A DNA stretch of 64,000 nt from Candidatus Caldarchaeum sp. (GCA_038844785.1 JAWBRA010000007.1:1-64000); one strand, 5' to 3'; numbered from the stretch's first letter, positions 11,692 to 30,571 are shown. A program made the numbers and translations. The notes: a model not told the origin generated them from the sequence alone.

Positions 11692-11694
11692 CGT

Positions 11695-12675
11695 TTATTC
11701 ACGTGAGTATGGAACACCTAACGCCGCTGGTACGCCTATGCGTTTGCGGACTGACTCTATCGATAGCAGTGTGAGGGTTACTATGGTGACTATGTATGGG
11801 AGCATGAGCAGGAACTGGGGCAGCTGGGCTGCGACGCCCATCACTTGAAGCCTGAACTGAAGCGTCTCAACTCCTCCAAAAAGATAGGCGCCCAGCACCG
11901 CCCTCAACGGGCTCCATGTAGCAAGGATGACAAGGGCCAGCGATATGAAGCCACGTCCCTGCGTCATTCCCTCAACCCAGAAAGCTTGGTAGCCTATGAA
12001 CAGGTACGCGCCGGCAAGCGAGCCTAAGGCACCGCATATCCCCATGGCTGTGTACCTCATTTGAAACACGTTCACACCTAGTGAGTCTGCCATTGAAGGG
12101 TTTTCGCCGCATGACCTAAGGCTTAGTCCAAACCTTGTCTTGAAGAGAATAAACCACATCACAATGCTTGACATGAGCGAGAAATAGACCAAGACGTTGT
12201 GGGTGAAGAACATGGGTCCTATGACGGGTATGTCTTTTAGAACAGGTATGGGAGTTGTGGGGAGCTTCGCAGCCTCTTGTGTAATCAGGAGTCTTTCAGG
12301 CGTCGCAGGGTTGAGCGCTATAATTATTCGCCGTCTTATCTCTGCGGAGGTGATTAGACCGCTTAAACCTAATCCAAGTATCGTATAAGCCAGCCCTACA
12401 ACTATCTGGTTGAGTTTAAGGCTTACGGTGAAGACGGCGTGGGAAAGACCTAGAACCGTTCCAACCATGACTGCGGCTAACAGGGCGGCACCGTGGCCCA
12501 ACGCGTTCGTGAAAATGAAGGAAACGGCTGCCCCCATTATCATCATACCCTCCATCCCTAGGTTTAACACGCCTGAACGCTCTGCATATGTTTCGCCAAG
12601 CGAGGCAAGCAGGAAAACCGTGCCCGCTGCCACAGCGCCTGACAAGATTGAGCTTATCCATCCCACATCGATCAT
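11695..12675 (-). CDS. Nucleoside/purine ABC transporter permease
   Basis: GETYAERSGVLNLGMEG, GENP..ADSLG, GRGFISLA. Confidence 0.9.
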   Translation of the reverse strand: MIDVGWISSILSGAVAAGTVFLLASLGETYAERSGVLNLGMEGMMIMGAAVSFIFTNALGHGAALLAAVMVGTVLGLSHAVFTVSLKLNQIVVGLAYTILGLGLSGLITSAEIRRRIIIALNPATPERLLITQEAAKLPTTPIPVLKDIPVIGPMFFTHNVLVYFSLMSSIVMWFILFKTRFGLSLRSCGENPSMADSLGVNVFQMRYTAMGICGALGSLAGAYLFIGYQAFWVEGMTQGRGFISLALVILATWSPLRAVLGAYLFGGVETLQFRLQVMGVAAQLPQFLLMLPYIVTIVTLTLLSIESVRKRIGVPAALGVPYSRE

Positions 12676-13739
12676 ACTGTAATTCTCACCCTATGGCGTT
12701 TAAAGAACTCGCCTAAAATAATCATCAGGAAGATTGTTGACTGGAAAATCTGAACCGCTGCGAACTGAAGGTTTAACGTTGCTTGGAGAACGTCGCCAGC
12801 AACCAGCAGTCCTCCGAAGAATATCGACGCGGGAACGGCTATCCACGGGTTTAGCGCTGCTAGAAAAGCTATGATTATGGCTGTGTAGCCGTAACCGGGT
12901 GAGAAATCCGGTCGGAGTCTTCCTATTATCCCGCTGACTAAAACCAGTCCTCCGAGGCCTGCTAAGCCTCCCGCTATCAAACTGCCGGCCATAAGCGTGC
13001 GGCCTATATTGATCCCAGCGTATCTTGCTGCCTCAAGGTTTTGTCCGAGGACACGCATTTCAAACCCTAACGCCGTTTTTTGCAGCAACCCGTAAAGCAG
13101 CGCGGCTACGGCGACAGCCGCCGGCAAGCCGAAGTATACTGTGTTGCCGAACAATGCCTCCATCTTAGCATAGTTGGGGAATTCGATAGACAAGGGGAAG
13201 CCAAACCCCCTAGGATCTCTCCAGGGTCCGTAAACGAGAAAACGTACAAAAAGAATTGCAACATAGTTCAGCATCAGTGTAGGAAGTATCTCGTTGACCC
13301 CGAGACGGGCCCTGAGAAACGCGGTGAAAGCGCAGTAAAGACCTCCAGCGATGAACGCCGATAGAGCCATGCAGGGAAAAACTAACGGTTCGGCAATTAA
13401 ACCATAGTAAGCGTGAATCAGAACCACGCCTGTCGCGGCTACTCCACCCATGTAAATCTGCCCTTCAGCACCTATATTCCAGAAATTCATTTTGAACGCG
13501 AGACAAAGGCCCAGAGCCGCAAACATTATCGGTAGACTTCTGAGGGCTGCTTGAAGCAGGTTCGAAGGGGTTGTGAACACGTAGACAACTTTTGAAAGAG
13601 TTTCATAAGAGCTGACTCCGAGTATTTCGAATATCAGGCTTGCCGTAAGCATTGCTAGAAGTATGAATAATGCGGTTACTGCTGCTGAGAGTCTGCGTGA
13701 AGTTTCCATCCTCCTCTCAATCTTTATGCCGATGGCCAT
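12672..13739 (-). CDS. Nucleoside/purine ABC transporter permease
   Basis: WNIGAEGQ, GVNEIL.TLMLNY, AARYAGI, GYGYTAI. Confidence 0.9.
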   Translation of the reverse strand: MAIGIKIERRMETSRRLSAAVTALFILLAMLTASLIFEILGVSSYETLSKVVYVFTTPSNLLQAALRSLPIMFAALGLCLAFKMNFWNIGAEGQIYMGGVAATGVVLIHAYYGLIAEPLVFPCMALSAFIAGGLYCAFTAFLRARLGVNEILPTLMLNYVAILFVRFLVYGPWRDPRGFGFPLSIEFPNYAKMEALFGNTVYFGLPAAVAVAALLYGLLQKTALGFEMRVLGQNLEAARYAGINIGRTLMAGSLIAGGLAGLGGLVLVSGIIGRLRPDFSPGYGYTAIIIAFLAALNPWIAVPASIFFGGLLVAGDVLQATLNLQFAAVQIFQSTIFLMIILGEFFKRHRVRITV

Positions 13740-13741
13740 CT

Positions 13742-15283
13742 TCAGACGCTTACCTCCTTTTTTCTGATCCCTGTCATCATGAGCCCGATATCCTCAACAT
13801 CGTACTGACCTTTCTCAAAAACCCCCACTATTTCACCCCTGTACATGACCATTATTCTATCGCTTAACGACAATAGTTCCTCAAGCTCTTCCGAAACCAG
13901 CAGAACAGCAACTCCCTGCTCCGACTTTCGAACGAGCTCGCGGTGGATAAACTCCGTCGACGCTATGTCAAGACCCCTTGTTGGATATGCGGCGAGAATA
14001 ACCTTTAGATGCGGGATTGTTCCAAGCTCTCTGGCGAGCACAAGCCTCTGGATATTGCCGCCCGACAGGTTGCCGGCCTTATTATTTATCGACGGCGTGA
14101 CTATGTTAAATTCTTTTACAAGCTGCTGCGCGTTTTTCTCCACGTTTTTCCAGTTTATCAACAAGCCGTTGAAGTACTCCTTCAGCCTATATGCTTTGAG
14201 TAAAATGTTTTCGGCTACGGTCATTTCTGGCGCGGAATACCTTAGAGCCTCAGCCGGTATGTATCCGATACCTGCTTTTATAATCTCTGAAGGATGGCGG
14301 TTGGTTATGTCCACGGAGTTTAAAAAGACTTTGCCGGAGACGATTTTCCTAAGCCCTGCGATGGCTTCTAGAAGTTCTTGCTGCCCGTTGCCAGAAACAC
14401 CAGCCAAACCCAGAATCTCCCCCTCATACAGCTTAAATGAAACGTCTCTAACGGCTTCAAGCCCCTTGTCGTTGAGAACAAAAAGGTTTGACACTTCAAG
14501 CAATGGCTTGTTCTTCGTCAAAACCCTCTTGGTTTGAACTTTCGCTAAAGGCCTTCCTATCATAAGGTTGACCAGCTCCTCGATGTTTGTTTCTTTGGTG
14601 AGTTTAGTTGCCATCGTCTTTCCGCCACACATCACCGTAACCCTGTCGCTGACAGCCATCACTTCTTCAAGCTTATGGGTTATCAGCACTATACCTAGCC
14701 CTTCCGAAGCCATCTTCCGAAGAGTCTGGAAGAGGATGGCTGTTTCTTGAGGTGTTAGGACGGATGTAGGCTCATCAAGTATAATTATTTGAGCCTTCCT
14801 GTAGAGCGCTTTAAGTATTTCAACCTGCTGTTTCTCCCCAGCTGAGAGCTGCCAGACCTTAGCCTCTGGGGAAATTTTCCAACCATAGCTCGAGATCATC
14901 TGCGACAGTTCTTGATTAATTTTACGTGAGTTAAGCACAAACCCAGCCTCTCTCAACCCTAAAATTACGTTTTCCGCGACGGTGTGAACTGGAATTAGCT
15001 TGAACTGTTGATGCACCATTCCTATCCCAAGCTTGATGGCGTCTCTTGGGCTTCTGATGTCTACCTTTCTCCCGTTAACTTTTATCTCACCCGCATCAGC
15101 CTTGTATATCCCGTAAAGAATGTTCATTAAAGTTGTCTTGCCGGCTCCGTTCTCGCCCAGAAGCGCGTGAACCTCCCCCCGTCGTAGGGTGAAGCTTGCG
15201 TCATCGTTGGCTACAACGTTGGGGAAACGTTTAACTATTCCTTTCATCTCCACTAAGTATTCCTCGTCCGCCATCCTGCTCAC
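13742..15283 (-). CDS. ABC transporter ATPase (two NBDs, CUT2/nucleoside type)
   Basis: GENGAGKTT, LSAGEKQ, DEPT, GVSGNGQ, LSGGNIQ. Confidence 0.93.
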   Translation of the reverse strand: MSRMADEEYLVEMKGIVKRFPNVVANDDASFTLRRGEVHALLGENGAGKTTLMNILYGIYKADAGEIKVNGRKVDIRSPRDAIKLGIGMVHQQFKLIPVHTVAENVILGLREAGFVLNSRKINQELSQMISSYGWKISPEAKVWQLSAGEKQQVEILKALYRKAQIIILDEPTSVLTPQETAILFQTLRKMASEGLGIVLITHKLEEVMAVSDRVTVMCGGKTMATKLTKETNIEELVNLMIGRPLAKVQTKRVLTKNKPLLEVSNLFVLNDKGLEAVRDVSFKLYEGEILGLAGVSGNGQQELLEAIAGLRKIVSGKVFLNSVDITNRHPSEIIKAGIGYIPAEALRYSAPEMTVAENILLKAYRLKEYFNGLLINWKNVEKNAQQLVKEFNIVTPSINNKAGNLSGGNIQRLVLARELGTIPHLKVILAAYPTRGLDIASTEFIHRELVRKSEQGVAVLLVSEELEELLSLSDRIMVMYRGEIVGVFEKGQYDVEDIGLMMTGIRKKEVSV

Positions 15284-15330
15284 ATCCGGGCAACTATAGA
15301 AAATAAAAAAATTTATGGATGTTTAGGCCG

Positions 15331-16683
15331 TTATCGCCTTGGTAGCTCGCTTTGGATGTATTCAACAAACCAGTCCATGTTCCAGAGCATGGCCCAGTCA
15401 GCGCGCTCGGAACCTTTTATTCTGACCTCTCCCTTCTGGTCTCTGATAGGCTCGCCCAAGTTTCCTTCAACGCTGAAAGGTTCAAACAACAGTTCTTTCA
15501 TCTCTTCATATCTTCTCTTTATCTCGGTTTGCCATTCGCTCGGGATAGCGGGATGCAGCTTACCTAGCTGGAGAGTTCCATCCATTTGCCCAGCAGTGCT
15601 CTGCTCCACAGGCCGCCTCCATCTGTAAGGCATGTAATCACCAATTCTTGTCCAGATATCCACAGACCTCCATGTGTTTGTGGCAACCATCCTGTAAAAT
15701 TCAAGGTATATGGGTCCCCAGTTCACGATCTGCCCTGTGAGATGGGAGTTTGGACCATACTGTGTCATGTCGCTGTAGTGGCTGAAACTCCAAACCCTCC
15801 TGCCCTTCTGCGTTGTGTATTCTTCCGCAACCTGCAGGGTTGTAGGCGAGTCCTCTGTGAAGGCGAGAACGTCTGCTTTAGATTCCTCGATTAGGGCGGT
15901 TGCTGCCTGTCGTGTTTTACCCGGGTCAAACCAGCTGAAAAGCCAGTTTACGTATGCTTTTATGTTTTTACCTGTCCGTTTCTTATATGAATAGTTTGCC
16001 CCTAACACGAACGCGTTGATGTGTCTGACGACCTCAGGTATCGGATGTGCTGCGACATAACCTACGACGCCCGTTTGTGTGACCGCGCCGGCTGCAAGCC
16101 CGTTAAGATAGTAGAGCTGGTAAAACTCTGCGAAGGCGCTGCTCATGTTCTGGGGTGCGTTTCCCGCCGCACCGCTTCTGTATCCTGAAATGTGTACAAA
16201 ATATTTGTCAGGATGTTTGGCAGCTGCTTCCGCTGTTGGATCCATGTAGCCGAAGCTGGTGGTTATGACTAGGTCTGCTCCTTGGTTTACCAGAGACTCT
16301 ATGGCGCCTAACGCTTGGGCTTCCGGAACGCTCTCAATGTACGGGCTGTCTACGTTCTTGAACATGGAGTCAGCCCATTTTCTTCCTAGGTCATGGGCGT
16401 ATGTCCATCCGAAGTCGCCCACAGGCCCGACGTATACGTAGCCTACTTTCAACCTTTTGGCAGGGGCTGTTGTTGTGACTGTCCTAGTAACAGCTGGGCC
16501 TGTGACGGTCACCGTTCCCGCAGGCGCTGTCACCGTCCTGGTGACAGCTGGAGGTGCTTGTGATGCTCCTGCGAAATATCCTGCGAGACCGCCGACGACC
16601 GCAGCAGCAGCGACAGAGCCTGCGGCGACGCCCGAGGAAACGGCTAGAAACTTTCGCCTGGAAATTCGGGTCTTTTCCTTCAT
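15331..16683 (-). CDS. BMP-family purine/nucleoside substrate-binding protein with Tat signal
   Basis: SRRKFL twin-arginine motif, Thr/Val-rich linker, VGPVGDFGWTYAH, TTSFGYMD, PEVVRHINAF, WFDP. Confidence 0.9.
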   Translation of the reverse strand: MKEKTRISRRKFLAVSSGVAAGSVAAAAVVGGLAGYFAGASQAPPAVTRTVTAPAGTVTVTGPAVTRTVTTTAPAKRLKVGYVYVGPVGDFGWTYAHDLGRKWADSMFKNVDSPYIESVPEAQALGAIESLVNQGADLVITTSFGYMDPTAEAAAKHPDKYFVHISGYRSGAAGNAPQNMSSAFAEFYQLYYLNGLAAGAVTQTGVVGYVAAHPIPEVVRHINAFVLGANYSYKKRTGKNIKAYVNWLFSWFDPGKTRQAATALIEESKADVLAFTEDSPTTLQVAEEYTTQKGRRVWSFSHYSDMTQYGPNSHLTGQIVNWGPIYLEFYRMVATNTWRSVDIWTRIGDYMPYRWRRPVEQSTAGQMDGTLQLGKLHPAIPSEWQTEIKRRYEEMKELLFEPFSVEGNLGEPIRDQKGEVRIKGSERADWAMLWNMDWFVEYIQSELPRR

Positions 16684-16728
16684 CACGTTATTTGATGAGC
16701 TAGGGGTATATATGTTTATGGTGTTTTG

Positions 16729-18513
16729 CTAGTCGATAACGAGGTCGACAAATTGGAATGTGACGGTGTCAAGTAGTCCTTTGTCTGTCAGCCTGAGCTC
16801 AGGTATTACGCTTAGGCTTAACAGCGACATCGTCATAAAAGGTGAAACCCATTCGCATCCTAGCTTCCGCCAGACGCTGTAGGTTCTGTTGAGTTTTTCT
16901 GCAACGGAGACAGCTGTCTCGGTCGACATAAGACCTGCCAGCGGAAGCTCAACCTTGGCCAAGACCTCTCCGTCTGCAACTGTAACTATTCCACCGTTTA
17001 TGCGGGCGTTTTCATTAGCCGCCAAAGCCATGTCCTTTTCATCGTATCCTAGGACGAGTAGGTTGTGGCTGTCGTGAGCGACTGTAGACGAAACAGCGCC
17101 TTTTCTGAAGCCAAAGCCTTTCGTAAACCCTATCCCCATCCCGCCTGTTTTTCCATGCCTCTCAACTACCGCTGTTTTCAGAATACTTCTGTCAGGGTCG
17201 GACAGTATGTTGCCTCCTTTAACCTCGAGCCTTTCTATGCGATGTTTTGTGATTACACTTCCTTCGATGGCTTGGATAACTCTCACCCTCACCTCCTCTC
17301 CCTCACGGCTGTAGTGTATTTTGAAGTCTTCTGGCGTCAGATGTCTTGGCAGCTTAACGCTCTTCATGAACCTTTCGGGGTAGTTGAACTCCGGCAGCTC
17401 CTTAACCATTTTACCGTTTTCAGCAACAAGCTCACCGTTTGCGAAAACGGCTTCGATCCTAAACTTCGTGAGGTCTGAGACGATCAGTATGTCCGCAAGC
17501 CTTGCTGGTGCGATGCTGCCCAGCTCGTAGGAAAGCCTGTATCTTTCGGCAGGGTTGAGCGTGCACATCTGGATAGCTGTTAGAGGGTCAACGCCTTCCT
17601 CAATCGCCCTTCTGAGACTATGGTCTACGTGACCATCCCTGAGAATTGATGCAGGCTCTTTGTCATCCGTGCAGAGGCATATGTGACGGGGGTCTATTCC
17701 CGTCTCGGTGTAGGCTTTTATCGTCTCCTTGATGTCAAGCCATGCGCTTCCCTCCCTGAGATATACGTACATCCCGTTCCTCAGACGTTCGAGCGTCTGT
17801 CTCTTTGTGACGCTTTCGTGCGTTGATGTTATCCCCGCTGCTACATATGCTGCGAGCTCCCTTCCCAGAAGACCTGAGTCATGTCCTTCGACAAGTTTTC
17901 CAGACTTAAGCGTTTCAGCTATCTCGGCGTGGACGTTCTCGTCGCCGGCTAGAACTCCTGGAAAATTCATCATCTCGCCTAGGGCTATCACTTCGTCTAG
18001 TTTCATAGCTTCTGCAACATCTTCAGGGCCTATAACCGCTCCAGCGGTTTCGAACCCTGGCGCCGCCGGCACGCATGAAGGATATGTGATGAAGACTTTG
18101 AGGGGGAGGTTTCTGGACTCCTCTATCATCAGCTTCACCCCGTCAAGCCCGAAAACATTCCCTATTTCATGAGGGTCTATGAAAACAGTAGTGGTTCCAT
18201 GCGGAAGAACGATTCTAGCGAACTCTGTCACGCTTATCATGGAACTTTCTATGTGGACGTGAGGGTCCAAGAGGCCGGGAACAACGTATTTTCCCTCAGC
18301 GTCGTAAACTATGGTATCGGACCCTATGCAGGGGCTTGAGTCGCCCACCAAAGCAATACGTCCAAGTTTAACGACAACATCCACGTTCTCCAACAGCTCG
18401 CGTGTATGGACGTTGACGACATTCCCCCCTTTAACCACGAGGTCGGCTTTCTCCAATCCAAGCGCGGTCCTTACCAAGTTTTTAGTTGCCTGGTAAAGCT
18501 TTGAACGCACCAT
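16729..18513 (-). CDS. ade: Adenine deaminase
   Basis: HVHIESS, DPHEIGNV, PSCVPA, EMMNFPGV, LREGSA, CTDD, VAHDSHNL, VIPELRLTDKGL. Confidence 0.95.
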   Translation of the reverse strand: MVRSKLYQATKNLVRTALGLEKADLVVKGGNVVNVHTRELLENVDVVVKLGRIALVGDSSPCIGSDTIVYDAEGKYVVPGLLDPHVHIESSMISVTEFARIVLPHGTTTVFIDPHEIGNVFGLDGVKLMIEESRNLPLKVFITYPSCVPAAPGFETAGAVIGPEDVAEAMKLDEVIALGEMMNFPGVLAGDENVHAEIAETLKSGKLVEGHDSGLLGRELAAYVAAGITSTHESVTKRQTLERLRNGMYVYLREGSAWLDIKETIKAYTETGIDPRHICLCTDDKEPASILRDGHVDHSLRRAIEEGVDPLTAIQMCTLNPAERYRLSYELGSIAPARLADILIVSDLTKFRIEAVFANGELVAENGKMVKELPEFNYPERFMKSVKLPRHLTPEDFKIHYSREGEEVRVRVIQAIEGSVITKHRIERLEVKGGNILSDPDRSILKTAVVERHGKTGGMGIGFTKGFGFRKGAVSSTVAHDSHNLLVLGYDEKDMALAANENARINGGIVTVADGEVLAKVELPLAGLMSTETAVSVAEKLNRTYSVWRKLGCEWVSPFMTMSLLSLSVIPELRLTDKGLLDTVTFQFVDLVID

Positions 18514-18605
18514 CGCTCTTCGGTATGTTTGTTCGCCGTAGATATAACTTTAGACGTTTTACGCAAACAATAAATAATCACCCCCCTCAATAATATCGAG
18601 CGTAG

Positions 18606-19607: not shown

Positions 19608-19610
19608 GAT

Positions 19611-20975: not shown

Positions 20976-20979
20976 AACT

Positions 20980-21819: not shown

Positions 21820-22280
21820 TGGCTCTGCAGGTCCGGTTCAAGGTTAACGGCGTCAACTATTCGCTTGATGTGGCGCCTAACGAAAGGTTGAGCGATGTTT
21901 TACGTGTTAGGCTCGGGTTTATGGGGGTTAAGGAGGGCTGCGGCGTCGGCGACTGCGGGCTCTGCATAGTTTTGATGGACAGCAAACCCGTAAACTCGTG
22001 TTTGGTTCTAGCCTACCAGGCCGACGGACATAAAATAGAGACGGTGGAGTCGTTAGGAGGAGACGGTAAGCTTCACCCGCTCCAGAAAGCCTTCGTAGAC
22101 GTTGGAGCGGTTCAGTGCGGGTTCTGCATCCCAGCCGTTCTTCTGGTTTTGAAAAACCTGCTGGACACCAACCCGTCAGCCTCCCAAGACGAAGTGAGAT
22201 ACGCGTTGAGAAGTGTTCTCTGCAGGTGCGGAAGCTACCTAAGGTTTTTAGAGGCGTTTGAAACTGTGAGGCGCAGATGA
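21819..22280 (+). CDS. Mo-hydroxylase 2Fe-2S subunit (XdhC/CoxS-like)
   Basis: GCGVGDCGLC, NSC, QCGFC, CRCGSY. Confidence 0.93.
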   Translation: MALQVRFKVNGVNYSLDVAPNERLSDVLRVRLGFMGVKEGCGVGDCGLCIVLMDSKPVNSCLVLAYQADGHKIETVESLGGDGKLHPLQKAFVDVGAVQCGFCIPAVLLVLKNLLDTNPSASQDEVRYALRSVLCRCGSYLRFLEAFETVRRR

Positions 22281-24607
22281 GCGAGGAAATAATCCAACGT
22301 TTTAAGGAGATTTTGCAAGCTCGCGAGTTTCTTGTCGTTGGCAGGAAGGTTGCTAGGGTAGATGCGTTAGACGCTGTTCTCGGAAAACCAGTCTACACAG
22401 CCGATCTCGTTGTTGAAAAACCTTTGTATGTTAAAGCCGTAAGGTCTAAGCTTCCACACGCCTACATAAAGGGAATGGATTTCAGCAGGGTTGAGAAGAA
22501 GCAAGGTGTTAGGAAAGTAATCACACATCGCGACATACCCGGAGTGAATGATGCAGGAAGCCTTATACCCGACAGACCCCTCCTCGCAGTCGACAAGGTT
22601 AGGCATGTAGGGGAGGCTATGGCGCTAATCGTGGCAGACACAATCGAAGATGCTGAAGAAGCAGTAGACCTTGTAGATGTTTACTACGAGCCTCTTCCCG
22701 TTGTCTCGAACCCACGTGACGCAATGAAACCCGACGCCCCCAGAATCCAGGACAGGGACAACATAGTAACACACTTCAAGATAAGGAAAGGAGACGTCGA
22801 TAAAGGCTTGCGGGAATCAGACACAATAATAGAAAGAACGTACAAAACCCCTTTCATCACAGGACTGCCTCTTGAAATAGAGATCGCCTACGCATACCCT
22901 GACGGCGACGGAAGAATAACATGCATATCATCGATGCAGAACCTTTACGATGTTTACAACAAGGTTTTGAAGATCCTCGGGCTTCCAGCGGATAGGCTGC
23001 GTGTTGTCCAAGCAACCACGGGAGGAGGATTTGGCCCCAAGTCGGATGAAACACCGATAGACGTTGCAGCCTACGCGTGTCTCGCAACCTACTTCACCGG
23101 CAAGCCCTCTCTGGCGGCTTTCACACGAAGCGAAGCCATGACCGTCCAGTGCAAAAGACACGCCTTCGAGATAACCAACGTTGTAGGAGCTTCCAAGAAC
23201 GGCAGACTTCTGGCTTGGAAATCAACTCTGTTAGAGGATACAGGTGCATACGTTTCGAAAGGACATCTGGTTATAGGCAGAGCGACATTCCACTGCACAG
23301 GCCCCTACGAGGTACCCAACGTATGGGCTGACGGCTACTGTGTTCTGACAAACAATACGATGGCAGGGTCGACAAGAGGGTTCGGAGCACCCCAAGCCCA
23401 TTTTGCAGCTGAGATGACAATGAACGAACTGGCTGAAGAACTAGGGCTCTCACCCCTCGAGATACGTGAAATCAATATTCTGAGGCCCGGGTCTTTGACA
23501 GCAACAAGCCAAAAAATAGAGGATGACGGGCTTATACAATGCTACCGGCGTGCGGTTGAGACATCATGGTGGGAGAGGAAAACTCGCATGTTCGAAGAGT
23601 TCAACAGGAACAGCAGTAAACATAAGAAAGGGATCGCCATCGCTCTTCTCTACCACGGCAACACACTCGGTCCTGAGGGAGATGATTTCGCGACTGTTTT
23701 GACAAAAGTTGAGAAGGATGGACTGGTCGTCCTGCAGACAGGGTTGACGGAGTATGGCACGGGGGCTTTGACCTCGCTTGTCTTGGTGACAGCTGAAACT
23801 TTAGGGTTGCCGCCGCACATGATTAGGCTTGAAAGACCCGACACAGCAGCTGTGCCCAACTCAGGCCCCACCGTGGCTTCGAGGACCACGGTCATAGGTG
23901 GAATGGCTGCCTTGGATGCGGCGCTGAAGATAAGGGCTGCAGTGGCGTCGGTTGCTGCTAAACTGTTGAAAGCCGACCCAGCTAAACTCGACTTCAGAGA
24001 CGGCTACATATGGAGTAGCTCAGGTATGTCGATAGCATGGGTTGACGCTGTTCGACAATGCTATGAAGAAGGTTTAGAGCTTAAAGCATTGGGTCATTAC
24101 ATTGCGCCTCCGACTAAATGGGACCCTGAAACAGGGCAGGGAGCTCCCTACAACCAGTACACTTACGGCGCGCTTGTGGCGGAGGTGACGGTAGACGTGG
24201 AGACAGGGTTTGTCAAGGTTGACAGGCTGACAGCGGCTTACGACGTTGGAAAAGCCATAAACCCGTTGGGGCTTGTCGCCGTCTACGAGGGTGGAAGCAT
24301 AATGGGGTTGGGTTATGCTTTGCTCGAGGAGATAATCCATGAAAGAGGTTATGTCTTAAACCCGAGCCTCCACACATTCATAATCCCAACGGCTTCAGAG
24401 GCGCCGGAGAAAATAGAGAGCATTATAGTTGAGGTCCCTGGATCTATGGGTGTTTTTGGAGCGAAGGCTATGGGTGAGATTCCTGTTGTTCTTCCTGCGG
24501 CTGCGATAGCAGGGGCTGTTGCTAACGCCACAGGCGTTTACGTCAGGGAGCTGCCGCTGAGGCCCGACCGTGTGCTTGCAGCTCTGAGACAGCGAAAGGA
24601 AACATAA
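22277..24607 (+). CDS. Xanthine dehydrogenase-family molybdopterin-binding subunit
   Basis: GGGFGPK, TRGFGAPQ, PNSGPTVASR, DVGKAINP, GAKAMGE. Confidence 0.92.
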   Translation: MSEEIIQRFKEILQAREFLVVGRKVARVDALDAVLGKPVYTADLVVEKPLYVKAVRSKLPHAYIKGMDFSRVEKKQGVRKVITHRDIPGVNDAGSLIPDRPLLAVDKVRHVGEAMALIVADTIEDAEEAVDLVDVYYEPLPVVSNPRDAMKPDAPRIQDRDNIVTHFKIRKGDVDKGLRESDTIIERTYKTPFITGLPLEIEIAYAYPDGDGRITCISSMQNLYDVYNKVLKILGLPADRLRVVQATTGGGFGPKSDETPIDVAAYACLATYFTGKPSLAAFTRSEAMTVQCKRHAFEITNVVGASKNGRLLAWKSTLLEDTGAYVSKGHLVIGRATFHCTGPYEVPNVWADGYCVLTNNTMAGSTRGFGAPQAHFAAEMTMNELAEELGLSPLEIREINILRPGSLTATSQKIEDDGLIQCYRRAVETSWWERKTRMFEEFNRNSSKHKKGIAIALLYHGNTLGPEGDDFATVLTKVEKDGLVVLQTGLTEYGTGALTSLVLVTAETLGLPPHMIRLERPDTAAVPNSGPTVASRTTVIGGMAALDAALKIRAAVASVAAKLLKADPAKLDFRDGYIWSSSGMSIAWVDAVRQCYEEGLELKALGHYIAPPTKWDPETGQGAPYNQYTYGALVAEVTVDVETGFVKVDRLTAAYDVGKAINPLGLVAVYEGGSIMGLGYALLEEIIHERGYVLNPSLHTFIIPTASEAPEKIESIIVEVPGSMGVFGAKAMGEIPVVLPAAAIAGAVANATGVYVRELPLRPDRVLAALRQRKET

Positions 24608-24637
24608 CTCTTTAAACCACGACTTTGCTTTAACGCC

Positions 24638-25657
24638 ATGACCCTGGCTGAACTGTACGGGAGAGACCTGATATCCTCACAGGACTGGAGCGTCGAGGAG
24701 ATAGAGGCTACAATGGAGCTTGCGCGAAGCCTCAAGATAGGTAAAGCTGTTGGCGACGTCCCCGAACTTTTCAAAAACAGGACGATGTTCATGCTTTTCT
24801 ACAACACGTCTACGAGGACGAGGGCAAGTTTCGAAGCCGCGGCAACAATGCTTGGCGGCCACGCGCAGTTCATAGACTTTGCAACAACACGGGGAGCGGA
24901 GGGAGAGTCTGTTAAAGACATGGCTAAGATGTACGAAAGGCTTGGGCATGTTCTTGGGGTGCGGATTCTAGAATCGGCTGTCGACTATGTTTACGGAAGA
25001 GGTAACGCTGTTGTGAGAGAGTATGCGGAGCATGCTCGAATCCCTGTCATAAACATGGCCGACGACATGTACCATCCCAGCCAAGCTATCACAGACCTTT
25101 ACACGTTGAGGGAGAAGCTGGGAAAGGTTGAGAAAAAGAAGTACGTTCTGATGTGGGCGTACAGCGACAAAGTTAGAAGCTGGGGAAGCATACAGGACGA
25201 GCTCCTGATAGCAACAAGGTTCGGCATGGACGTGGTGCTAGCATACCCGCCCGGCTTTGACATAGACCAGAAAATCGTCGAGCAAGCACGTAGAAATGCT
25301 GGCGAAAGCGGCGGCTTCCTCGAAATTTCCCACGATTACAAAACGGCTCTGCAGGGAGCTGACGCAGTCTTTCCCCGCAGCTGGGCCAGCCATGAATGCG
25401 TAATGACCGGATTGAATAGGTTCGGCCGCGAAAAAGAGATAGAGTTGCATAACAGGTACAAGGACTGGCGGCTGACTAAAACGCTGACAGACCTGATGTC
25501 TAAGCACGGCGTCGTAACCCATGTTTTGCCTGTTTTCAGAGGGCAGGAGGCTGACGACGACGTCATGGACGGTCCCCGCAGCGTTATCTACGACCAGGCT
25601 GAAAACCTGCTGTATGTAAGAGCTGCGATTCTCGCGTTGGTTGCGGGAAGGGTTTAA
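24638..25657 (+). CDS. Carbamoyltransferase, YgeW/knotted-type (non-canonical OTCase family)
   Basis: STRTRASF, HPSQ, MWAYS, RFGMDVVLAYPPGF, FPRSW; HVLP replaces HCLP. Confidence 0.8.
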   Translation: MTLAELYGRDLISSQDWSVEEIEATMELARSLKIGKAVGDVPELFKNRTMFMLFYNTSTRTRASFEAAATMLGGHAQFIDFATTRGAEGESVKDMAKMYERLGHVLGVRILESAVDYVYGRGNAVVREYAEHARIPVINMADDMYHPSQAITDLYTLREKLGKVEKKKYVLMWAYSDKVRSWGSIQDELLIATRFGMDVVLAYPPGFDIDQKIVEQARRNAGESGGFLEISHDYKTALQGADAVFPRSWASHECVMTGLNRFGREKEIELHNRYKDWRLTKTLTDLMSKHGVVTHVLPVFRGQEADDDVMDGPRSVIYDQAENLLYVRAAILALVAGRV

Positions 25658-26613
25658 GGGGGTACTACGTGTGTTCCCGCCCTCCCCTCAATAGCCTCCT
25701 TGAGCTGCGACAGCTCCGCGATGATGGCCTCTTTTCCGCCTGCTTCAACAAACCTTATGCACGCCAGAACCTTTGGTAACATGCTTCCAGAACCGAAATG
25801 ACCCTGCTCCAAGTATTTCTTCATTTCCTGTGCTGATACTTTTTCAAGCCTTCTCTGTGTTGGCTTTCCGAAGTCTAGGTAGGCGCCGTCAACATCCGTC
25901 AGTATGATGAACCTGCTGGCTTGGATGAGCTCCGCAAGCTTCTCGCCGGCCAGGTCCTTGTCGATGACTGCCTCAACTCCTGAAGCCCTTCCGTCTTCCT
26001 CGATGATAGGGATTCCACCGCCTCCGCTGGCAACCACTATGAACCCAGCGTCAACCAAAGTTCTTATCGCACGACGCTCAGCGATTATCTTTGGTTCTGG
26101 CGACGGCACCACCCTACGCCATCCACCACGAGCCTTGTCCTCAGCAAAAACATACTCTGGATGCTCAGCTTTTATCTTCTCCATCTCCTCCTTACTGTAG
26201 AAAGGTCCGATAGGCTTGGTTGGGTTTTTGAAGGCTGGGTCGTCTTTGTCAACGATAACACGCGTAACCACCGTTATTACGTATTTGTCTATTCCACGTC
26301 TTTTGAGCTCGTTGCGTAGGTTTTGCTGGATGATGTAGCCTATGAACCCCTGTGTCTCAGCGCCGCATGCATCCATCGGAAAAGCGGGTATGCTATATAA
26401 TTTTTGACCAGCATCGTGACGTAGCAGTGTCGCACCCACCTGCGGACCGTTGCCGTGCGTTATGACAAGCTTGTAACCCTTTTCAACCAAGTCTGCGAGA
26501 TAGACCGCCGTCGAAGCCACGTTTTTGTACTGCTCTTCAAAGGAGCCTTTGTCTCCTCGTCTTAGCAGGGCGTTGCCACCCAAAGCCACAACAACAAGCT
26601 CTTCGTTTGCCAT
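25654..26613 (-). CDS. arcC: Carbamate kinase
   Basis: VALGGNAL, THGNGPQVG, PTKPIGPFY, RRVVPSP, GGGGIP, EAVIDKD, GSMLPKV. Confidence 0.97.
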   Translation of the reverse strand: MANEELVVVALGGNALLRRGDKGSFEEQYKNVASTAVYLADLVEKGYKLVITHGNGPQVGATLLRHDAGQKLYSIPAFPMDACGAETQGFIGYIIQQNLRNELKRRGIDKYVITVVTRVIVDKDDPAFKNPTKPIGPFYSKEEMEKIKAEHPEYVFAEDKARGGWRRVVPSPEPKIIAERRAIRTLVDAGFIVVASGGGGIPIIEEDGRASGVEAVIDKDLAGEKLAELIQASRFIILTDVDGAYLDFGKPTQRRLEKVSAQEMKKYLEQGHFGSGSMLPKVLACIRFVEAGGKEAIIAELSQLKEAIEGRAGTHVVPP

Positions 26614-26633
26614 ACACCGTATCTTTAAGGCTT

Positions 26634-27875
26634 TTATAAAAACCTCTTAAGCTCTCCAAGATCTGGGTTTATTAGAGGCAGCTCTATCTGAGATGCGGCC
26701 TTTTCAGGCTCTTTTAATCCAGACCCCGTGACGAGGATGACGACTTCATCGCTGGGGTCGAGGAAGCCTTGTTCCAGGAGTTTTTTTGCTGCGGCAACTC
26801 CCACCGCTCCTGAAGGTTCTGCGAAAATACCTTCGAGGCCTGCCAGCTGTCGGACTGACTCCCTAATCTCATCTTCCTCAACAGCCTCAGCCCAGCCTCT
26901 TGTGGTCTTAACCGCTTCCATCGCCGCGTCGCCATCCCACGGGAACGGGTCCAGCAGGCCTGACGCGATAGACCTAGGATGTTTCTCGGCGGTTATTTCC
27001 GCGAACCTTTTTCCTTCTTTGATAGCCCTAACTAGCGGCTGGTTGCCCGATGGCTGGACCGGTATTATTTTTGGATACTGGTCTATGAGACCCAGCCGCA
27101 TCAGGTCGCGCAGCCCTTTCCAGACTCCTGTGGCAAGACAGCCTGAGCCTGTGGGTATTATTAGGGCGTCTGGAACCAGCCAACCCATCTGCTCTACAAC
27201 TTCGTAAGCTATCGTCTTAGGTCCTTCAACCTGGTATGGGTTGAAGGGGCCGAAGCTTGGACAGGGATACCATCCAAGGTTTTTAACGGTCTGCAGCATC
27301 AAGTCTACTGTTGGGTCTCTACCCTCTTGAACCTGCCTGACGCGAAAAACCTTGGCTCCATAGAGAATCAGCTGAGATGCTTTGCCAGTTGCGATGTCTT
27401 CGGGAACGAAGGCGTGGCATCTGAGCCCGAGGGAGGCGCTGTAAGCCGCCAGGGATGATGCTGCGTTTCCGCTGGAAGCAATCACAACATCTCTCCTGCC
27501 AATTTCAACGGCTTTGGCCGCCCCCACTGACATTGCTCTGTCCTTGAAAGAGGCCGTCGGATTCCGTGTCTCATCCTTGAGCAGAAGATGTTTAAACCCA
27601 AGACGTTCTCCAAGCTTTGAAGCTTTCAATAGAGGTGTATCACCCTCCAGCAAAGGAGATGCAAAACGTTTGTCGGCAGGCATGAGCTCCCAATAACGCC
27701 AAACACCATTCCTCGGCCTCTTTGAAACCTGCTTGCGTGAAAAGCTTTCGGAGATTTTTGCATAGTCGTATAAGATGTCCAGCCTGCCGTAGTCTTGCTT
27801 TCTGCACATCAACGGATTCTGACTATAATCGTATGTTTCTCCACAGCGGGAGCAGACTATCTTTTCGACAAACAT
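26634..27875 (-). CDS. Threonine synthase-like PLP enzyme (fold type II)
   Basis: EGDTPL, NPTASFKDR, ASSGNAA, EGPKT, PTGSG, EPSGA, TGSGLK. Confidence 0.85.
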   Translation of the reverse strand: MFVEKIVCSRCGETYDYSQNPLMCRKQDYGRLDILYDYAKISESFSRKQVSKRPRNGVWRYWELMPADKRFASPLLEGDTPLLKASKLGERLGFKHLLLKDETRNPTASFKDRAMSVGAAKAVEIGRRDVVIASSGNAASSLAAYSASLGLRCHAFVPEDIATGKASQLILYGAKVFRVRQVQEGRDPTVDLMLQTVKNLGWYPCPSFGPFNPYQVEGPKTIAYEVVEQMGWLVPDALIIPTGSGCLATGVWKGLRDLMRLGLIDQYPKIIPVQPSGNQPLVRAIKEGKRFAEITAEKHPRSIASGLLDPFPWDGDAAMEAVKTTRGWAEAVEEDEIRESVRQLAGLEGIFAEPSGAVGVAAAKKLLEQGFLDPSDEVVILVTGSGLKEPEKAASQIELPLINPDLGELKRFL

Positions 27876-27886
27876 GCCTACATTAC

Positions 27887-28370
27887 TTAAATTCGCGTGA
27901 TGTTAAACCTGCATGCTTTAAACCCCATTACTCTACACTCTTTCTCGACGGTTTCGAACTTTGCGTCGTAGAGGGATTCGGCTATTCCGTTGAGAATTCC
28001 CGACAAGAAATAGCAGTTCGGTGAATCTCTTCTCACAGACCCATCGCAGAAGACGCAATTCGTCATAACAACCTCTAAGCTCCATGAGGTTGCTATGTTG
28101 TTAGCCACTTCGGGAACCCCCCCAGCCCGCCTTGAAAGCTGAAGCAACGAGCGTTTTTATCGCTTCATCCGGCGATTTAGGCATCATCCGTGTTTTTCTC
28201 CCCAAGGCTAATCCATATCTATGACCTATGTTCCACATCAGCGCGTCCGCAACAGGTCTGGACATAGCTTCTCCAAGAAGGCTAATCATTTCGTTGAAAG
28301 TCTTGGCTGAGAGCATAAAGACTCTTCCACCAAGCATAGTATCGTGAATCTCAGACTCAGAAGAGGCCAT
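27887..28370 (-). pseudogene. V4R-domain protein, frameshifted at a G7 tract
   Basis: ORFs 28101-28370 and 27887-28147 join if G7 (28117-28123) is G6, giving AGWGVPEV...CYFLSGILNG...EKECRVMGFKACRF. Confidence 0.8.
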
Positions 28371-28431
28371 CTTTAATCAGTTAATTTTTGTTTGTTATTA
28401 AAGTTTGGTAGAGAGGCTGGTGAGGGAAATG

Positions 28432-29460
28432 TTACCGTATTATTTCCAGCTTACCCAAATATTTTGACCTCATCTCCGCAGTGTATTCGTCCAACGGATG
28501 TTCACGCTCGGGTATGGCTGCTTTTTTCCCCGGCCCGAAAACCTCTGTCGAGAGATAGCGGTTACCCGAGTCGTTTATCATGGTAACTATTTTCCTAAGC
28601 TCTGGGTGTTTTCTCGCAACCTTGATGGCTGCTACGATATTGCATCCTGAAGATATTCCGCAGAAAAGTCCTTCAAAACGTGCCAGCTTCCTAGTCATCT
28701 CTATCGCCTCGTCTGATGAAACGGTTACTACGCCGTCGATGACGCTCAAGTCTAGGTTGCGTGGAATAAACCCGTCGCCTATGCCCTCTATTTTGTGGGA
28801 GCCCCATCTTCCGTCGGCTATTACCGAGGCCTCGCTTGGTTCTGCCGTGTAGACTTTCACCGAGGGTTTTTTGTTTTTAAGAAACCTGCCAACACCCGAT
28901 ACAGTTCCCCCAGAACCCTGCGACATGACGAAACACTCCACCGTTCCGTCTGTCTGCTCCCATATCTCAGGACCCGTCGTCTTTATGTGGGCTTGGATGT
29001 TGTCGGGGTTTGTGAACTGGTTGGGGAACCAGTATTTCCCTGGGTTGGAAGCCATCATCGACTCGGCCTTTTTCAAGCTCAGGTCGACGTCGCTTTCTCC
29101 TCCGGGGGTGAAGACAAGCTCTCCTCCAAAAGCCTTTATCAACTGCTTCCTCTCCTCGCTCATCCCCTCAGGCATGACTATTGTGACCTTGTAGCCGAGA
29201 TGCGTGCCTACAAAGCTGCATGCTATGCCTGCGTTCCCCGTCGACACCTCGAGTATCTCCATGTTAGGCCTTAGGTCGCCTCTCTCGATAGCTTTCGTAA
29301 TCATCTCACGGTATATCCTGTCTTTGAGGCTTCCCGAAGGGTTGTAGAATTCAAGCTTTGCGTAGATTTCAGCCTGCACACCTGCTTGCTGAGGTATCTT
29401 GGAGAGTTTGATGAGCGGTGTGCTGCCTATGATGTCAAGAATGTCTTCCGCAACCTTCAT
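28432..29460 (-). CDS. Cysteine synthase-like PLP enzyme
   Basis: IGSTPL, NPSGSLKDR, NQFTNPDN, TTGPEI, HKIEGIG, RYLST; substrate loop reads STGNAG. Confidence 0.85.
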   Translation of the reverse strand: MKVAEDILDIIGSTPLIKLSKIPQQAGVQAEIYAKLEFYNPSGSLKDRIYREMITKAIERGDLRPNMEILEVSTGNAGIACSFVGTHLGYKVTIVMPEGMSEERKQLIKAFGGELVFTPGGESDVDLSLKKAESMMASNPGKYWFPNQFTNPDNIQAHIKTTGPEIWEQTDGTVECFVMSQGSGGTVSGVGRFLKNKKPSVKVYTAEPSEASVIADGRWGSHKIEGIGDGFIPRNLDLSVIDGVVTVSSDEAIEMTRKLARFEGLFCGISSGCNIVAAIKVARKHPELRKIVTMINDSGNRYLSTEVFGPGKKAAIPEREHPLDEYTAEMRSKYLGKLEIIR

Positions 29461-30536
29461 CTTTTTCTTCCCATGACCATGGACATGACCGCTTTCTGGA
29501 CGTGGAGCCTGTTCTCAGCCTGCTGGAAGTAAAGCGAATAACTTGGGTTGTCGATAACCTCGTCCACCACTTCCTGACCTCTGTCAGCCGGGCCGCAGTG
29601 CATGTATTTCCCCTTGTTCGTCAAATCCATGAGCTCCGGCGTGCATATCCAGCTCTTGAACTGATCCTGATATTTCGTCGCCCCTTCTTTGTCGACGGTG
29701 CTGTTGTATGGTGGGAAGAATTTCTTCGGAGACCATGCTTTAGGATACACGAAGTCAGCTCCCTCAAACGCTTCCTTCATGTCGTTTGTAACGGTGAAGG
29801 AGCCTCCGTATGTCTCGACGTTCTTTCTACACGCCTCTAAGACATGGTCTTCAAGCTCGAATCCAGGCGGGTGGGCGAGCACGACATCCATGCCGAACTG
29901 CGTGCCTATCAGTATGCAGCTCTGGGGGACGGCGAGAGGCTTCAACCCACCCGAATACGCGTATGAAACAACAAATTTCTTTCCACGGGGTTTAGGGGTT
30001 ACGTCGGTTATTGCCATGATGTCTGCAAGAGCCTGAAACGGATGATAGACGTCGTCCTCCATGTTCAACACAGGTATCGAGCTCCATTTGGCGAACTCTT
30101 GGATGACACGGTGGCCTCTCCCTATATGCCATTTAGCGGCGTCGCCGTAGATTCTAACGGCTATGGCGTCGCCGTAAGTGCTGAGAACACGTGCCACGTC
30201 GGCGATCGACTCAGTTTGATACGGAATCATGTCTTCCGGGAGCGTTGGAGTGTATACGTCTGAGGGGTTCAGAAAGTGGGCGTGTCCGCCGAGCTGGTAA
30301 ATGCCTGCCTCGAAGGAGTTTCGTGTTCGCAGCGACCTGTTGTAAAAAATCATAAAGAGCGTCTGTCCTTTGAGAAACTCCGTGGCTTTTTTCGCCTTAA
30401 ACCTCTCCCTCAAATCCCTCGCCGCCTTCAAGATATCGTTGATTTGTTCCTGGCTGAAGTCGTTTGTGTTTAGGAAATCTTTGCCCTGCAGAGCGCCTAC
30501 GTATGCGGGTTTTCCAACAGCCTTACGTCTTGCCAT
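29457..30536 (-). CDS. Carbamoyltransferase, YgeW-like
   Basis: SLRTRNSF, HPFQ, YAYSGGLKPLAVPQS (YgeW-like), FGMDVVLAHPPGF, YPKAW, MHCGPADRG; likely start ATG 30536. Confidence 0.85.
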   Translation of the reverse strand: MARRKAVGKPAYVGALQGKDFLNTNDFSQEQINDILKAARDLRERFKAKKATEFLKGQTLFMIFYNRSLRTRNSFEAGIYQLGGHAHFLNPSDVYTPTLPEDMIPYQTESIADVARVLSTYGDAIAVRIYGDAAKWHIGRGHRVIQEFAKWSSIPVLNMEDDVYHPFQALADIMAITDVTPKPRGKKFVVSYAYSGGLKPLAVPQSCILIGTQFGMDVVLAHPPGFELEDHVLEACRKNVETYGGSFTVTNDMKEAFEGADFVYPKAWSPKKFFPPYNSTVDKEGATKYQDQFKSWICTPELMDLTNKGKYMHCGPADRGQEVVDEVIDNPSYSLYFQQAENRLHVQKAVMSMVMGRKR

Positions 30537-30571
30537 GCTTGCTACATGAGAATAGATAGATTTTAAGGTTG

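Follow-up and report, generated by a model that had tools for sequence, protein, structure and literature searches.

The DNA analysed here is a stretch of 64,000 nucleotides from Candidatus Caldarchaeum sp. (GCA_038844785.1 JAWBRA010000007.1:1-64000; hereafter the window, to which all positions refer unless a contig or locus is named), whose closest DNA matches are hot-spring metagenomes. Statements on presence or absence in the genome refer to the assembly to which the window belongs (G000; 1.74 Mb, 95% complete), and protein families were assigned with Pfam and NCBIfam models against their curated cut-offs. Between positions 11695 and 30602 lie three tightly packed operons which, judged from homology and gene context, we read on balance as a purine or nucleoside catabolic cluster resembling the bacterial reductive urate pathway (the 2,8-dioxopurine or 'yanthine' route), with several of its enzymes exchanged. 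Operon 1 runs leftward and encodes an adenine deaminase, a Bmp/PnrA-like binding protein, a double ABC ATPase and two permeases; operon 2 runs rightward and encodes a luciferase-like monooxygenase (LLM) family oxidoreductase, an SsnA-like amidohydrolase, the FAD, 2Fe-2S and molybdenum (Mo) subunits of an Xdh-family enzyme and a carbamoyltransferase (CT1); operon 3 runs leftward, converges on CT1 with a 4-bp overlap, and encodes a second carbamoyltransferase (CT2), a CysK-like enzyme, a V4R-domain protein, a ThrC-like enzyme and a carbamate kinase. A first-pass annotation of positions 11695-30536, which had proposed a remodelled archaeal version of the bacterial pathway and had missed the V4R gene, listed genes that were all present as long open reading frames (ORFs) and whose families were confirmed by Pfam and NCBIfam models. 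The features are:

11695-12675, minus strand: ABC permease gene 1, BPD_transp_2 (PF02653)
12672-13739, minus strand: ABC permease gene 2, BPD_transp_2 (PF02653)
13742-15283, minus strand: ABC ATPase with two nucleotide-binding domains (PF00005, 177.6 bits, 2 stretches)
15331-16686, minus strand: Bmp/PnrA-like substrate-binding protein (PF02608, 118.6 bits)
16729-18513, minus strand: adenine deaminase (TIGR01178 equivalog, 573.8 bits, cut-off 472.5; PF13382, 213 bits)
18514-18605, no strand: divergent intergenic region of 92 bp, by gene coordinates, between the adenine deaminase-transporter and LLM-SsnA-Xdh-CT1 operons; putative promoter region
18606-19607, plus strand: Mer-like LLM oxidoreductase, probably F420H2-dependent (PF00296, 242 bits)
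19611-20975, plus strand: SsnA-like amidohydrolase, proposed ring-opening hydrolase (SsnA models are the best NCBIfam matches)
20980-21819, plus strand: Xdh-family FAD subunit (Pfam domains)
21819-22280, plus strand: Xdh-family 2Fe-2S subunit (Pfam domains)
22277-24607, plus strand: Xdh-family Mo subunit, binding the molybdenum cofactor (Moco) (Pfam domains)
24638-25657, plus strand: carbamoyltransferase CT1, of the N-acetylornithine carbamoyltransferase (AOTCase)/YgeW type, not ornithine (OTC) or aspartate (ATC) carbamoyltransferase (PF02729 and PF00185)
25654-26613, minus strand: carbamate kinase (TIGR00746, 431.8 bits, cut-off 358.25; sole copy in the genome, by a single tblastn match)
26634-27875, minus strand: ThrC-like pyridoxal 5'-phosphate (PLP) enzyme, a dedicated paralog (PF00291, 248 bits; TIGR00260, 173 bits)
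27887-28370, minus strand: V4R-domain gene, broken into two overlapping ORFs by a frameshift in a run of G
28432-29460, minus strand: CysK-like PLP enzyme (TIGR01139, 359.8 bits, cut-off 350.95)
29457-30602, minus strand: carbamoyltransferase CT2, AOTCase-like (AOTCase model best)

The reductive urate/2,8-dioxopurine pathway was not elucidated until 2025, and solely in gut bacteria (PMC12507026; bioRxiv 10.1101/2025.04.24.650524); as far as these sources were available to us, its genes are xdhD-ygfM, ygfK, ssnA, hyuA, ygeW, yqeA, ygeY and ygeX in E. coli, and C. sporogenes has equivalents. Among the archaeal genes listed by the annotation, only those for adenine deaminase and carbamate kinase pass equivalog cut-offs free of doubt from context; the others meet no specific-function cut-off or, in the case of the ThrC-like and CysK-like enzymes, meet one that the context puts in doubt. 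The two permeases score 116 and 112 bits with PF02653, and the binding protein, with orthologs of 73-97% identity in related clusters, would serve the uptake of nucleosides or purines. Base composition (GC 0.48-0.53 throughout the block) shows no sign of a recent transfer. No RNA sequencing run was listed as containing positions 16729-26613.

Relatives of the SsnA-like gene were sought in 185,579 species genomes, and the best 80 of 138 were taken as loci and split by record title into Caldarchaeum/HR01 (12), other Caldarchaeales (8), other Nitrososphaerota (11) and everything else (49; Bathyarchaeia, Asgard, Desulfurococcales, Baldrarchaeota and two bacteria). Neighbours were counted within ±10 kb of the SsnA-like gene; contig ends cut many of the loci, so absences are upper bounds. 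A class-wide presence survey covered 76 genomes (G000 and its relatives G001-G075, which are not independent samples) and found the SsnA-like gene in 30, with 12 of 12 in the same genus and 16 of 17 in the same family. The annotation had named a lack of conservation as grounds for giving up its reading; instead, the cluster is conserved in Caldarchaeales and other Nitrososphaerota, the whole block being collinear in same-genus genomes and the same parts recurring elsewhere in Nitrososphaerota in differing gene orders. The importer, counted via the adjacent Bmp gene, stays with the cluster in 8/12 Caldarchaeum/HR01 loci. The other neighbours were found as follows (Caldarchaeum/HR01; other Caldarchaeales; other Nitrososphaerota; everything else):

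CT1 (≥60% identity): 7/12; 0/8; 8/11; 0/49
CT2 (≥60% identity): 6/12; 4/8; 2/11; 0/49
carbamate kinase: 7/12; 0/8; 8/11; 0/49
ThrC-like enzyme: 7/12; 6/8; 2/11; 1/49
CysK-like enzyme: 7/12; 0/8; 2/11; 2/49
hydantoinase: 0/12; 8/8; 9/11; 23/49

The SsnA-like amidohydrolase scored best with the two SsnA models (NF005540, 366.7 bits, cut-off 444; TIGR03314, 339.4 bits, cut-off 455.5), the lead over the next family (292 bits) being 75 bits, and E. coli SsnA was its best match within the E. coli purine locus. When 1.84 billion representatives were scanned, its own clade dropped off steeply to next relatives of at most 44% identity, and two of the first ten of these that were looked up are named SsnA by their sources. 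A homolog search started from E. coli SsnA gave Enterobacteriaceae throughout its best 120 matches. In phylogenies built from the top matches of the query, with deeper families thinly sampled, the archaeal SsnA-like clade was the sister of a bacterial SsnA clade containing E. coli SsnA and the two source-named representatives; the joint group had a Shimodaira-Hasegawa (SH)-like support of 97 (FastTree, 89 rows) and an SH approximate likelihood-ratio test support of 96 (IQ-TREE quick mode, 46 rows). The genome's DadD-like paralog on contig C10 and E. coli GuaD fell outside this group, and DadD and guanine deaminase were accordingly rejected as identities of the protein. The first-pass assignment as SsnA-like thus holds in the sense of a sister clade of bacterial SsnA in two trees, below the curated cut-offs, and the predicted role of the enzyme is to open the six-membered ring of a reduced purine. 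The C10 paralog (13036-14439 of that contig) is a second TRZ/ATZ-family hydrolase with DadD as its best match (400 bits, cut-off 522); it adjoins a PfkB kinase, an ECF-type transporter and a nucleoside hydrolase, also in locus L085, and two Nitrososphaerota loci, L026 and L028, have orthologs of 59-60% identity within their purine clusters. In the closed same-genus genome G011, the SsnA-like ORF (11515-12747 of locus L097) has 410 amino acids and matches residues 4-403 of 454; a truncation or frameshift in that assembly may have affected its C-terminus.

The SsnA-like gene starts 4 bp past the LLM gene on the same strand. Among loci with at least 1.2 kb of upstream flank, an LLM gene immediately preceded the SsnA-like gene in the same orientation in 11/11 Caldarchaeum/HR01, 6/6 other Caldarchaeales and 9/10 other Nitrososphaerota loci (26/27 overall), and in 0/45 loci outside the Nitrososphaerota groups. 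Given this adjacency and the collinearity in same-genus genomes, the arrangement of the block is not due to chance. The best NCBIfam match of the LLM protein was Mer at 212 bits against a cut-off of 348.7, on which ground it was rejected as a true Mer; F420-class models held the top 15 places and 18 of the 23 listed, none reaching its cut-off, the first FMN-type model scored about 65 bits, and the best PDB matches were F420-dependent Mer proteins (184 bits). These matches suggest an enzyme that is probably F420H2-dependent, which we propose as the ring-dearomatising reductase acting in place of YgfK or UacX. The genome encodes CofD, CofE and Fno, each above its cut-off. Absence checks were made by tblastn with the E. 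coli pathway proteins against the 95%-complete genome, where YgfK gave no match, in agreement with the annotation, which had not seen ygfK in the window.

A different reductase accompanies the SsnA-like gene in a few loci of other archaea. In C. difficile, YgfK is replaced by UacX, a PydA-like reductase (PF01180) consisting of a DHO_dh domain and 2x[4Fe-4S] (PMC12507026, as far as available to us), and a protein of the same architecture was found beside or near the SsnA-like gene in 4 of the 49 loci outside Nitrososphaerota: two from Desulfurococcales (the second of them Desulfurococcaceae), one from Baldrarchaeota and one from Heimdallarchaeota. The UacX-like gene adjoins the SsnA-like gene in L068 (1826-6772) and L031 (12776-13963), lies upstream on the opposite strand in L050 (8762-9832) and about 4 kb downstream in L082 (15242-16456); the Desulfurococcales operon in L068 has the order SsnA-like, UacX-like, CysK-like, ThrC-like and YgeY-like M20 enzyme. 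Unlike the C. difficile variant, the window has an LLM gene, and its genome contains no UacX-like DHO_dh/Fe-S protein. Because the partner is an LLM in Nitrososphaerota and of the UacX type in these four loci of other archaea, the SsnA-like enzyme keeps a reductase partner whose type changes. In six Bathyarchaeia loci (L049, L053-L056 and L058), a Pyr_redox_2 thioredoxin-reductase-like flavoprotein follows the SsnA-like gene and may be a further reductase partner. Other neighbours in Bathyarchaeia and most Asgard loci were a hydantoinase-like amidohydrolase, a MobA-like protein, the thioredoxin-reductase-like flavoprotein and proteins without a known family.

Pfam domains confirmed the three-subunit Xdh-family Mo enzyme, which has the features of the xanthine oxidoreductase family: Moco-binding domains, a catalytic Glu and separate FAD and 2Fe-2S subunits. 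The Mo subunit keeps the catalytic Glu in a GE motif and an Arg in an RGFG motif that aligns with the RGYG motif of XdhA. Its best NCBIfam match was XdhA (478 bits, cut-off 780), no equivalog cut-off being reached, and its best PDB match was bovine XDH (300.7 bits). Two cluster-linked Xdh types were distinguished, as the window Mo subunit is 58% identical to the copy in L026, and the in-cluster Xdh of other Nitrososphaerales is orthologous, at 58-59% identity, to a paralog on contig C30 of the genome. MocA-like and YqeB-like (XdhC/CoxI) cofactor genes occur within Nitrososphaeria clusters, so that the relatives of the window resemble the E. coli locus in this respect.

The annotation had rightly noted that hyuA is absent from the window, but its suggestion that an unrelated family sits in its place fails for this gene, since contig C3 (68449-69981) encodes a hydantoinase that passes TIGR02033 (458.7 bits, cut-off 393.25). 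This gene adjoins a second three-subunit Xdh set, and its product shares 53% identity with the Calditenuis copy, which lies within the cluster. Hydantoinase genes lie within the cluster in 17 of the 19 non-Caldarchaeum Nitrososphaerota loci; in a closed same-genus genome the distance to the cluster is about 1.2 Mb by coordinate, and in two sister genera it is 1-5 kb. A dihydropyrimidinase-like gene on C6 was rejected as a second hydantoinase, as it scores as a dihydroorotase/allantoinase and lies 4.7 kb upstream of PyrB. That the C3 enzyme passes a dihydropyrimidinase model would also suit a reductive pyrimidine route, in which the LLM would reduce uracil or thymine, the SsnA-like enzyme or the hydantoinase would open the ring and the transferases would phosphorolyse the resulting beta-ureido acid. 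The Pyd pathway has the same reductase-hydrolase logic, and a Bmp-type binding protein can accept several nucleosides; yet the operons contain an adenine deaminase and a three-subunit Xdh-family enzyme, the hydrolase is a sister of SsnA and not PydB, and two ring hydrolases with two transferases are more than a monocyclic substrate needs, and we regard pyrimidine degradation as very improbable. Under the reductive purine reading, by comparison, two ring-opening hydrolases and two transferases would match a bicyclic substrate that gives two ureido groups.

Two carbamoyltransferases that the annotation had called YgeW-like are indeed present and are not the biosynthetic ArgF or PyrB, for which the genome has separate genes (372 and 341 bits, respectively), but both are closer to AOTCase than to YgeW. 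The AOTCase model NF003384 (cut-off 288) gave 285.3 bits for CT2, a borderline score, and 228.7 for CT1, neither of which passes, and the YgeW models TIGR03316 and NF005538 gave 141 and 147 bits for CT1 and 149 and 154 bits for CT2 against cut-offs of 500 and 453; the identity of CT1 and CT2 to E. coli YgeW is 29-31%. CT1 has the motifs STRTR, HPSQ and HVLP but no DxxxSMG as found in OTC, and in an alignment with YgeW, ArgF, PyrB and AOTCase both proteins carry WAYS-type and P[KR]xW motifs, shared with AOTCase and YgeW, in place of the OTC SMG loop. The best PDB match of CT2 was the X. campestris AOTCase (223.5 bits; YgeW 133), with which (PDB 3kzc and related) it shares the SxRTR, HPxQ and HCxP motifs and the lack of the SMG loop; unlike that enzyme, CT1 and CT2 stay below the family cut-off and stand among purine and not arginine genes, in a genome with a normal ArgF. 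Orthologs of CT1 (71-95% identity) and CT2 (75-92% identity) were found in 15/31 and 12/31 Nitrososphaerota loci, respectively. The true start of CT2 is probably the ATG at 30536, where the annotation had ended the block, as indicated by alignment and a same-genus ortholog of 358 amino acids. By analogy, the likeness to AOTCase suggests that the substrate of CT2 may be an amino acid acylated at N-alpha and carbamoylated at a distal amine; this would fit the conversion of 2,3-diureidopropionate to 3-amino-2-ureidopropanoate, a step assigned to YgeW by Liu et al. in the part of their work available to us. For YgeY, the best tblastn match in the genome was an ArgE/DapE-type M20 protein on C17, which was rejected as YgeY (177 bits against a cut-off of 321); ygeY, not visible to the annotation in the window, thus has no homolog above cut-off in the genome.

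The two fold-II PLP enzymes that had been predicted proved to be a ThrC-like and a CysK-like protein. Three other ThrC paralogs of the genome score 269, 298 and 144 bits with TIGR00260. The ortholog of the ThrC-like gene lies directly after the SsnA-like gene in Calditenuis and also occurs in the Desulfurococcales SsnA-like operon, to whose copy the window protein is 51% identical versus about 35% to the other paralogs; the Protein Atlas returned only generic threonine-synthase or PALP clusters. The CysK-like gene is located between CT2 and the ThrC-like gene in 9/31 Nitrososphaerota loci and adjoins the SsnA-like gene in two Desulfurococcales loci. Both enzymes therefore co-occur with the SsnA-like gene independently in two distant lineages, Nitrososphaerota and Desulfurococcales.

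Several observations, set out in this and the following paragraph, weigh against a close counterpart of the bacterial route. The SsnA-like protein stays under both SsnA cut-offs and is just 30% identical to E. coli SsnA. The XdhD-specific active-site residue is Glu606 (PMC12507026, as far as available to us), and selenium dependence, involving SelD and YqeB/YqeC, was shown for the clostridial enzyme. The 11-residue XdhD insertion with Glu606 is absent from the window Mo subunit, from 10 paralogs in the genome and from 3 relatives, and all Mo subunits examined have an Arg where XdhD has Gln. SelD is below its cut-off in the genome (57 bits versus 125), YqeC gave no tblastn match there, and YqeB only a 26%-identity match to an XdhC-family protein on C15, which agrees with the annotation's remark that the selenium genes yqeB/C are not visible. 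Given that both the insertion/Gln signature and SelD are missing, there is no evidence of a urate 6-dehydroxylase and thus none for 2,8-dioxopurine as an intermediate; of the 2,8-dioxopurine route put forward in the annotation, the cluster parts survive in-silico tests, and this intermediate has no XdhD signature in its support. With about 11 Xdh/CoxL-family Mo-subunit paralogs in the genome (on contigs C1, C3, C6, C7, C17, C19, C30, C31 and C52), the roles assigned to individual copies are tentative. The genes cofG and cofH for synthesis of 7,8-didemethyl-8-hydroxy-5-deazariboflavin (FO) were not found in the 95%-complete genome, where F420 may depend on imported FO or an unrecognised FO synthase. 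No homolog of DpaL/YgeX was recognised, in keeping with the annotation: the window proteins gave no BLASTP match at 1e-5, and C12 holds the only match in the genome, of 24% identity. What becomes of the remaining C3 unit is a guess. An SsnA-type reductive degradation might instead be entered from another heterocycle, the LLM reducing xanthine, urate, 6,8-dioxopurine or a pterin-like compound and the downstream intermediates differing from ureidomethyl-hydantoin, albizziin and diaminopropionate. The missing XdhD-type insertion and Gln signature and the lack of DpaL speak for it, as do the other PLP enzymes and AOTCase-like transferases found where YgeX, YgeY and YgeW would be, and the fact that the nearest relatives of the LLM act on a pterin, methylene-tetrahydromethanopterin. 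However, a reductase, an SsnA-like hydrolase, a hydantoinase, two ureido-cleaving enzymes and a kinase reproduce the step count of the published pathway, as far as its description was available to us, and the Desulfurococcales version has a YgeY-like M20 enzyme; we consider entry from another heterocycle unlikely.

The remaining points concern the right half of the block. CarB was not found in the genome of the window or in 11/12 same-genus genomes, two of them 99% complete; the family, like the genus, lacks it but has ArgF and PyrB. Across the 76 genomes, genera with carbamate kinase mostly lack CarB and vice versa, the kinase occurring in 31/48 CarB-lacking versus 8/28 CarB-holding genomes, and one genus has the kinase in 7/8 genomes and the SsnA-like gene in none. 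As the genus lacks CarB, the kinase, whose identity had been correctly given in the annotation, may make carbamoyl phosphate as well as, or instead of, ATP, which weakens the annotated use of purines for ATP in addition to nitrogen. No other CysK of the genome scores better than the CysK-like enzyme, which also passes the cysK cut-off and could therefore be a housekeeping protein. Conceivably, purine handling is confined to the left half (importer, adenine deaminase, LLM, SsnA-like and Xdh), and the right half (CT1, kinase, ThrC-like, CysK-like and CT2) serves amino-acid and carbamoyl-phosphate housekeeping, with the kinase substituting for carbamoyl-phosphate synthetase. Besides the distribution of CarB, this division is favoured by the presence of the kinase in 12/46 genomes without the SsnA-like gene, by the CysK-like and ThrC-like proteins passing cysK and thrC-type cut-offs and by the score of CT2 within 3 bits of the AOTCase cut-off. 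Set against it are the kinase in 27/30 SsnA-like-positive genomes, the genome's own ArgF, PyrB, three other ThrC paralogs and CysM-like gene, the recurrence of right-half genes beside LLM-SsnA-like in distant Nitrososphaerota with differing gene orders, the position of the ThrC-like gene directly downstream of the SsnA-like gene in Calditenuis and the presence of both PLP enzymes in the Desulfurococcales SsnA-like operon, and we judge such a split quite unlikely. In the arginine deiminase pathway, a carbamoyltransferase and a carbamate kinase link a ureido compound to carbamoyl phosphate and ATP, and in Pyrococcus carbamoyl phosphate is synthesised by an enzyme of the carbamate kinase type. 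The window shares with these systems the pairing of carbamoyltransferase and kinase, the latter in a genome without CarB; unlike the arginine deiminase pathway, its transferases are not OTC, and arginine deiminase is absent from the genome.

In the reductive purine route that we favour, each enzymatic step of which is deduced from homology and gene context, the Bmp/PnrA-type ABC importer would take in purines or nucleosides, adenine deaminase would make hypoxanthine, and the clustered Mo hydroxylase, perhaps with the C3 and C30 paralogs, would adjust the oxo pattern of the purine. The Mer-like LLM would then reduce the aromatic purine with F420H2, the job of YgfK or UacX in bacteria, with Fno regenerating F420H2 from NADPH, after which the tightly coupled SsnA-like hydrolase would open the six-membered ring and the C3-encoded D-hydantoinase the five-membered ring to give a diureido acid. 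Both ureido groups would be released as carbamoyl phosphate through phosphorolysis by the two AOTCase-like transferases, of which the second would replace the hydrolase YgeY; the carbamoyl phosphate would yield ATP via carbamate kinase or, because the genus lacks CarB, may feed ArgF and PyrB directly. The ThrC-like and CysK-like enzymes would dispose of the leftover C3 amino acid, the role of YgeX in bacteria, and the proposed system would need no selenium. We put forward only tentatively, and as a doubtful proposition, the wider claim that archaea have their own selenium-free reductive purine pathway with an F420H2-dependent Mer-like reductase, two phosphorolytic transferases and new PLP enzymes, in which the reductase was swapped at least twice. 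If true, both ureido groups would become carbamoyl phosphate, worth up to two ATP per purine or, instead of ATP, possibly forming the main pool from which CarB-less organisms make arginine and pyrimidines, and the C3 remnant would be converted by the ThrC-like and CysK-like enzymes, possibly to pyruvate or cysteine.

The cluster is most likely an archaeal variant, not described before, of a known bacterial pathway. Of the remodelled pathway proposed in the annotation, the SsnA-like clade, the transferases and the conservation withstood the tests, and the details on hyuA, YgeW, ATP and 2,8-dioxopurine had to be corrected. A 2013 bioinformatic study of purine-catabolism reaction modules reportedly also names SsnA and YgeW. 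Like the bacterial pathway, as far as its description was available to us, the archaeal set comprises an Xdh-family enzyme, a reductase gene beside an SsnA-type hydrolase, a D-hydantoinase, a carbamoyltransferase of the knotted type (presumably so in the archaeal set) and a carbamate kinase. It differs in the lack of YgfK, YgeY, YgeX, YqeC and SelD from the genome, in the Mer-like LLM reductase, in a pair of AOTCase-like transferases where bacteria have one YgeW and the hydrolase YgeY, in ThrC-like and CysK-like enzymes where DpaL would be, in a hydantoinase that is unlinked in this genus and in its host, a hot-spring archaeon. An F420-type LLM in place of YgfK has been noted in print only for Chloroflexota (PMC12507026, as far as available to us), where a PF00296 LLM stands beside SsnA in place of YgfK/UacX as in the window; the published set covered bacterial IPR017700 members only. 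Unlike that set, the archaeal protein is below the TIGR03314 cut-off and forms its own clade, and there were no Chloroflexota among the best 80 of 138 SsnA-like relatives. The annotation's statement that no such arrangement is known thus holds for archaea, for which no description was found, and not for the exchange of YgfK for an F420-type LLM. Archaea have no mention in the main texts of PMC12507026 and bioRxiv 10.1101/2025.04.24.650524, whose supplements may hold more; our literature searches found no work linking the pathway to Aigarchaeota, Caldarchaeum or archaea in general, and only PMC12507026 for F420 and SsnA together. If the reading is true, purine-ring fermentation or assimilation would extend to hot-spring Caldarchaeales and soil and sediment Nitrososphaerota, abundant unnamed 'amidohydrolase' and 'LLM' genes would get a function, F420 would gain a new catabolic role, and nucleic-acid scavenging would be tied to carbamoyl-phosphate supply in CarB-less archaea; the two transcarbamylases and the ThrC-like enzyme, three families, would be candidates for new substrates.

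The V4R-domain gene between the two PLP genes encodes a possible small-molecule sensor. Its ortholog is an intact ORF of 160 amino acids with PF02830 in locus L005 and is in one frame in six Caldarchaeum loci. The frameshift maps to the G run at about 28117-28147; the contig of a related strain is one base shorter at 28117, and contigs of three sequencing runs, two of which may be sources of the DNA, carry the same sequence as the window. After CT2, at 30572-32358 on the minus strand, follow a MenA/UbiA-like prenyltransferase, whose N-terminal extension is long, and a weakly matching PNPOx-like split-barrel protein; these genes are syntenic in a same-genus genome, and no link to the cluster was shown. 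At 58731-58733, an in-frame TAG interrupts a CoxL-like Mo-subunit paralog with an AYRGAGRPE motif (56808-59174, minus strand), leaving one ORF of 147 and another of 607 amino acids; the gene could be a pseudogene, a sequencing error or a case of recoding.

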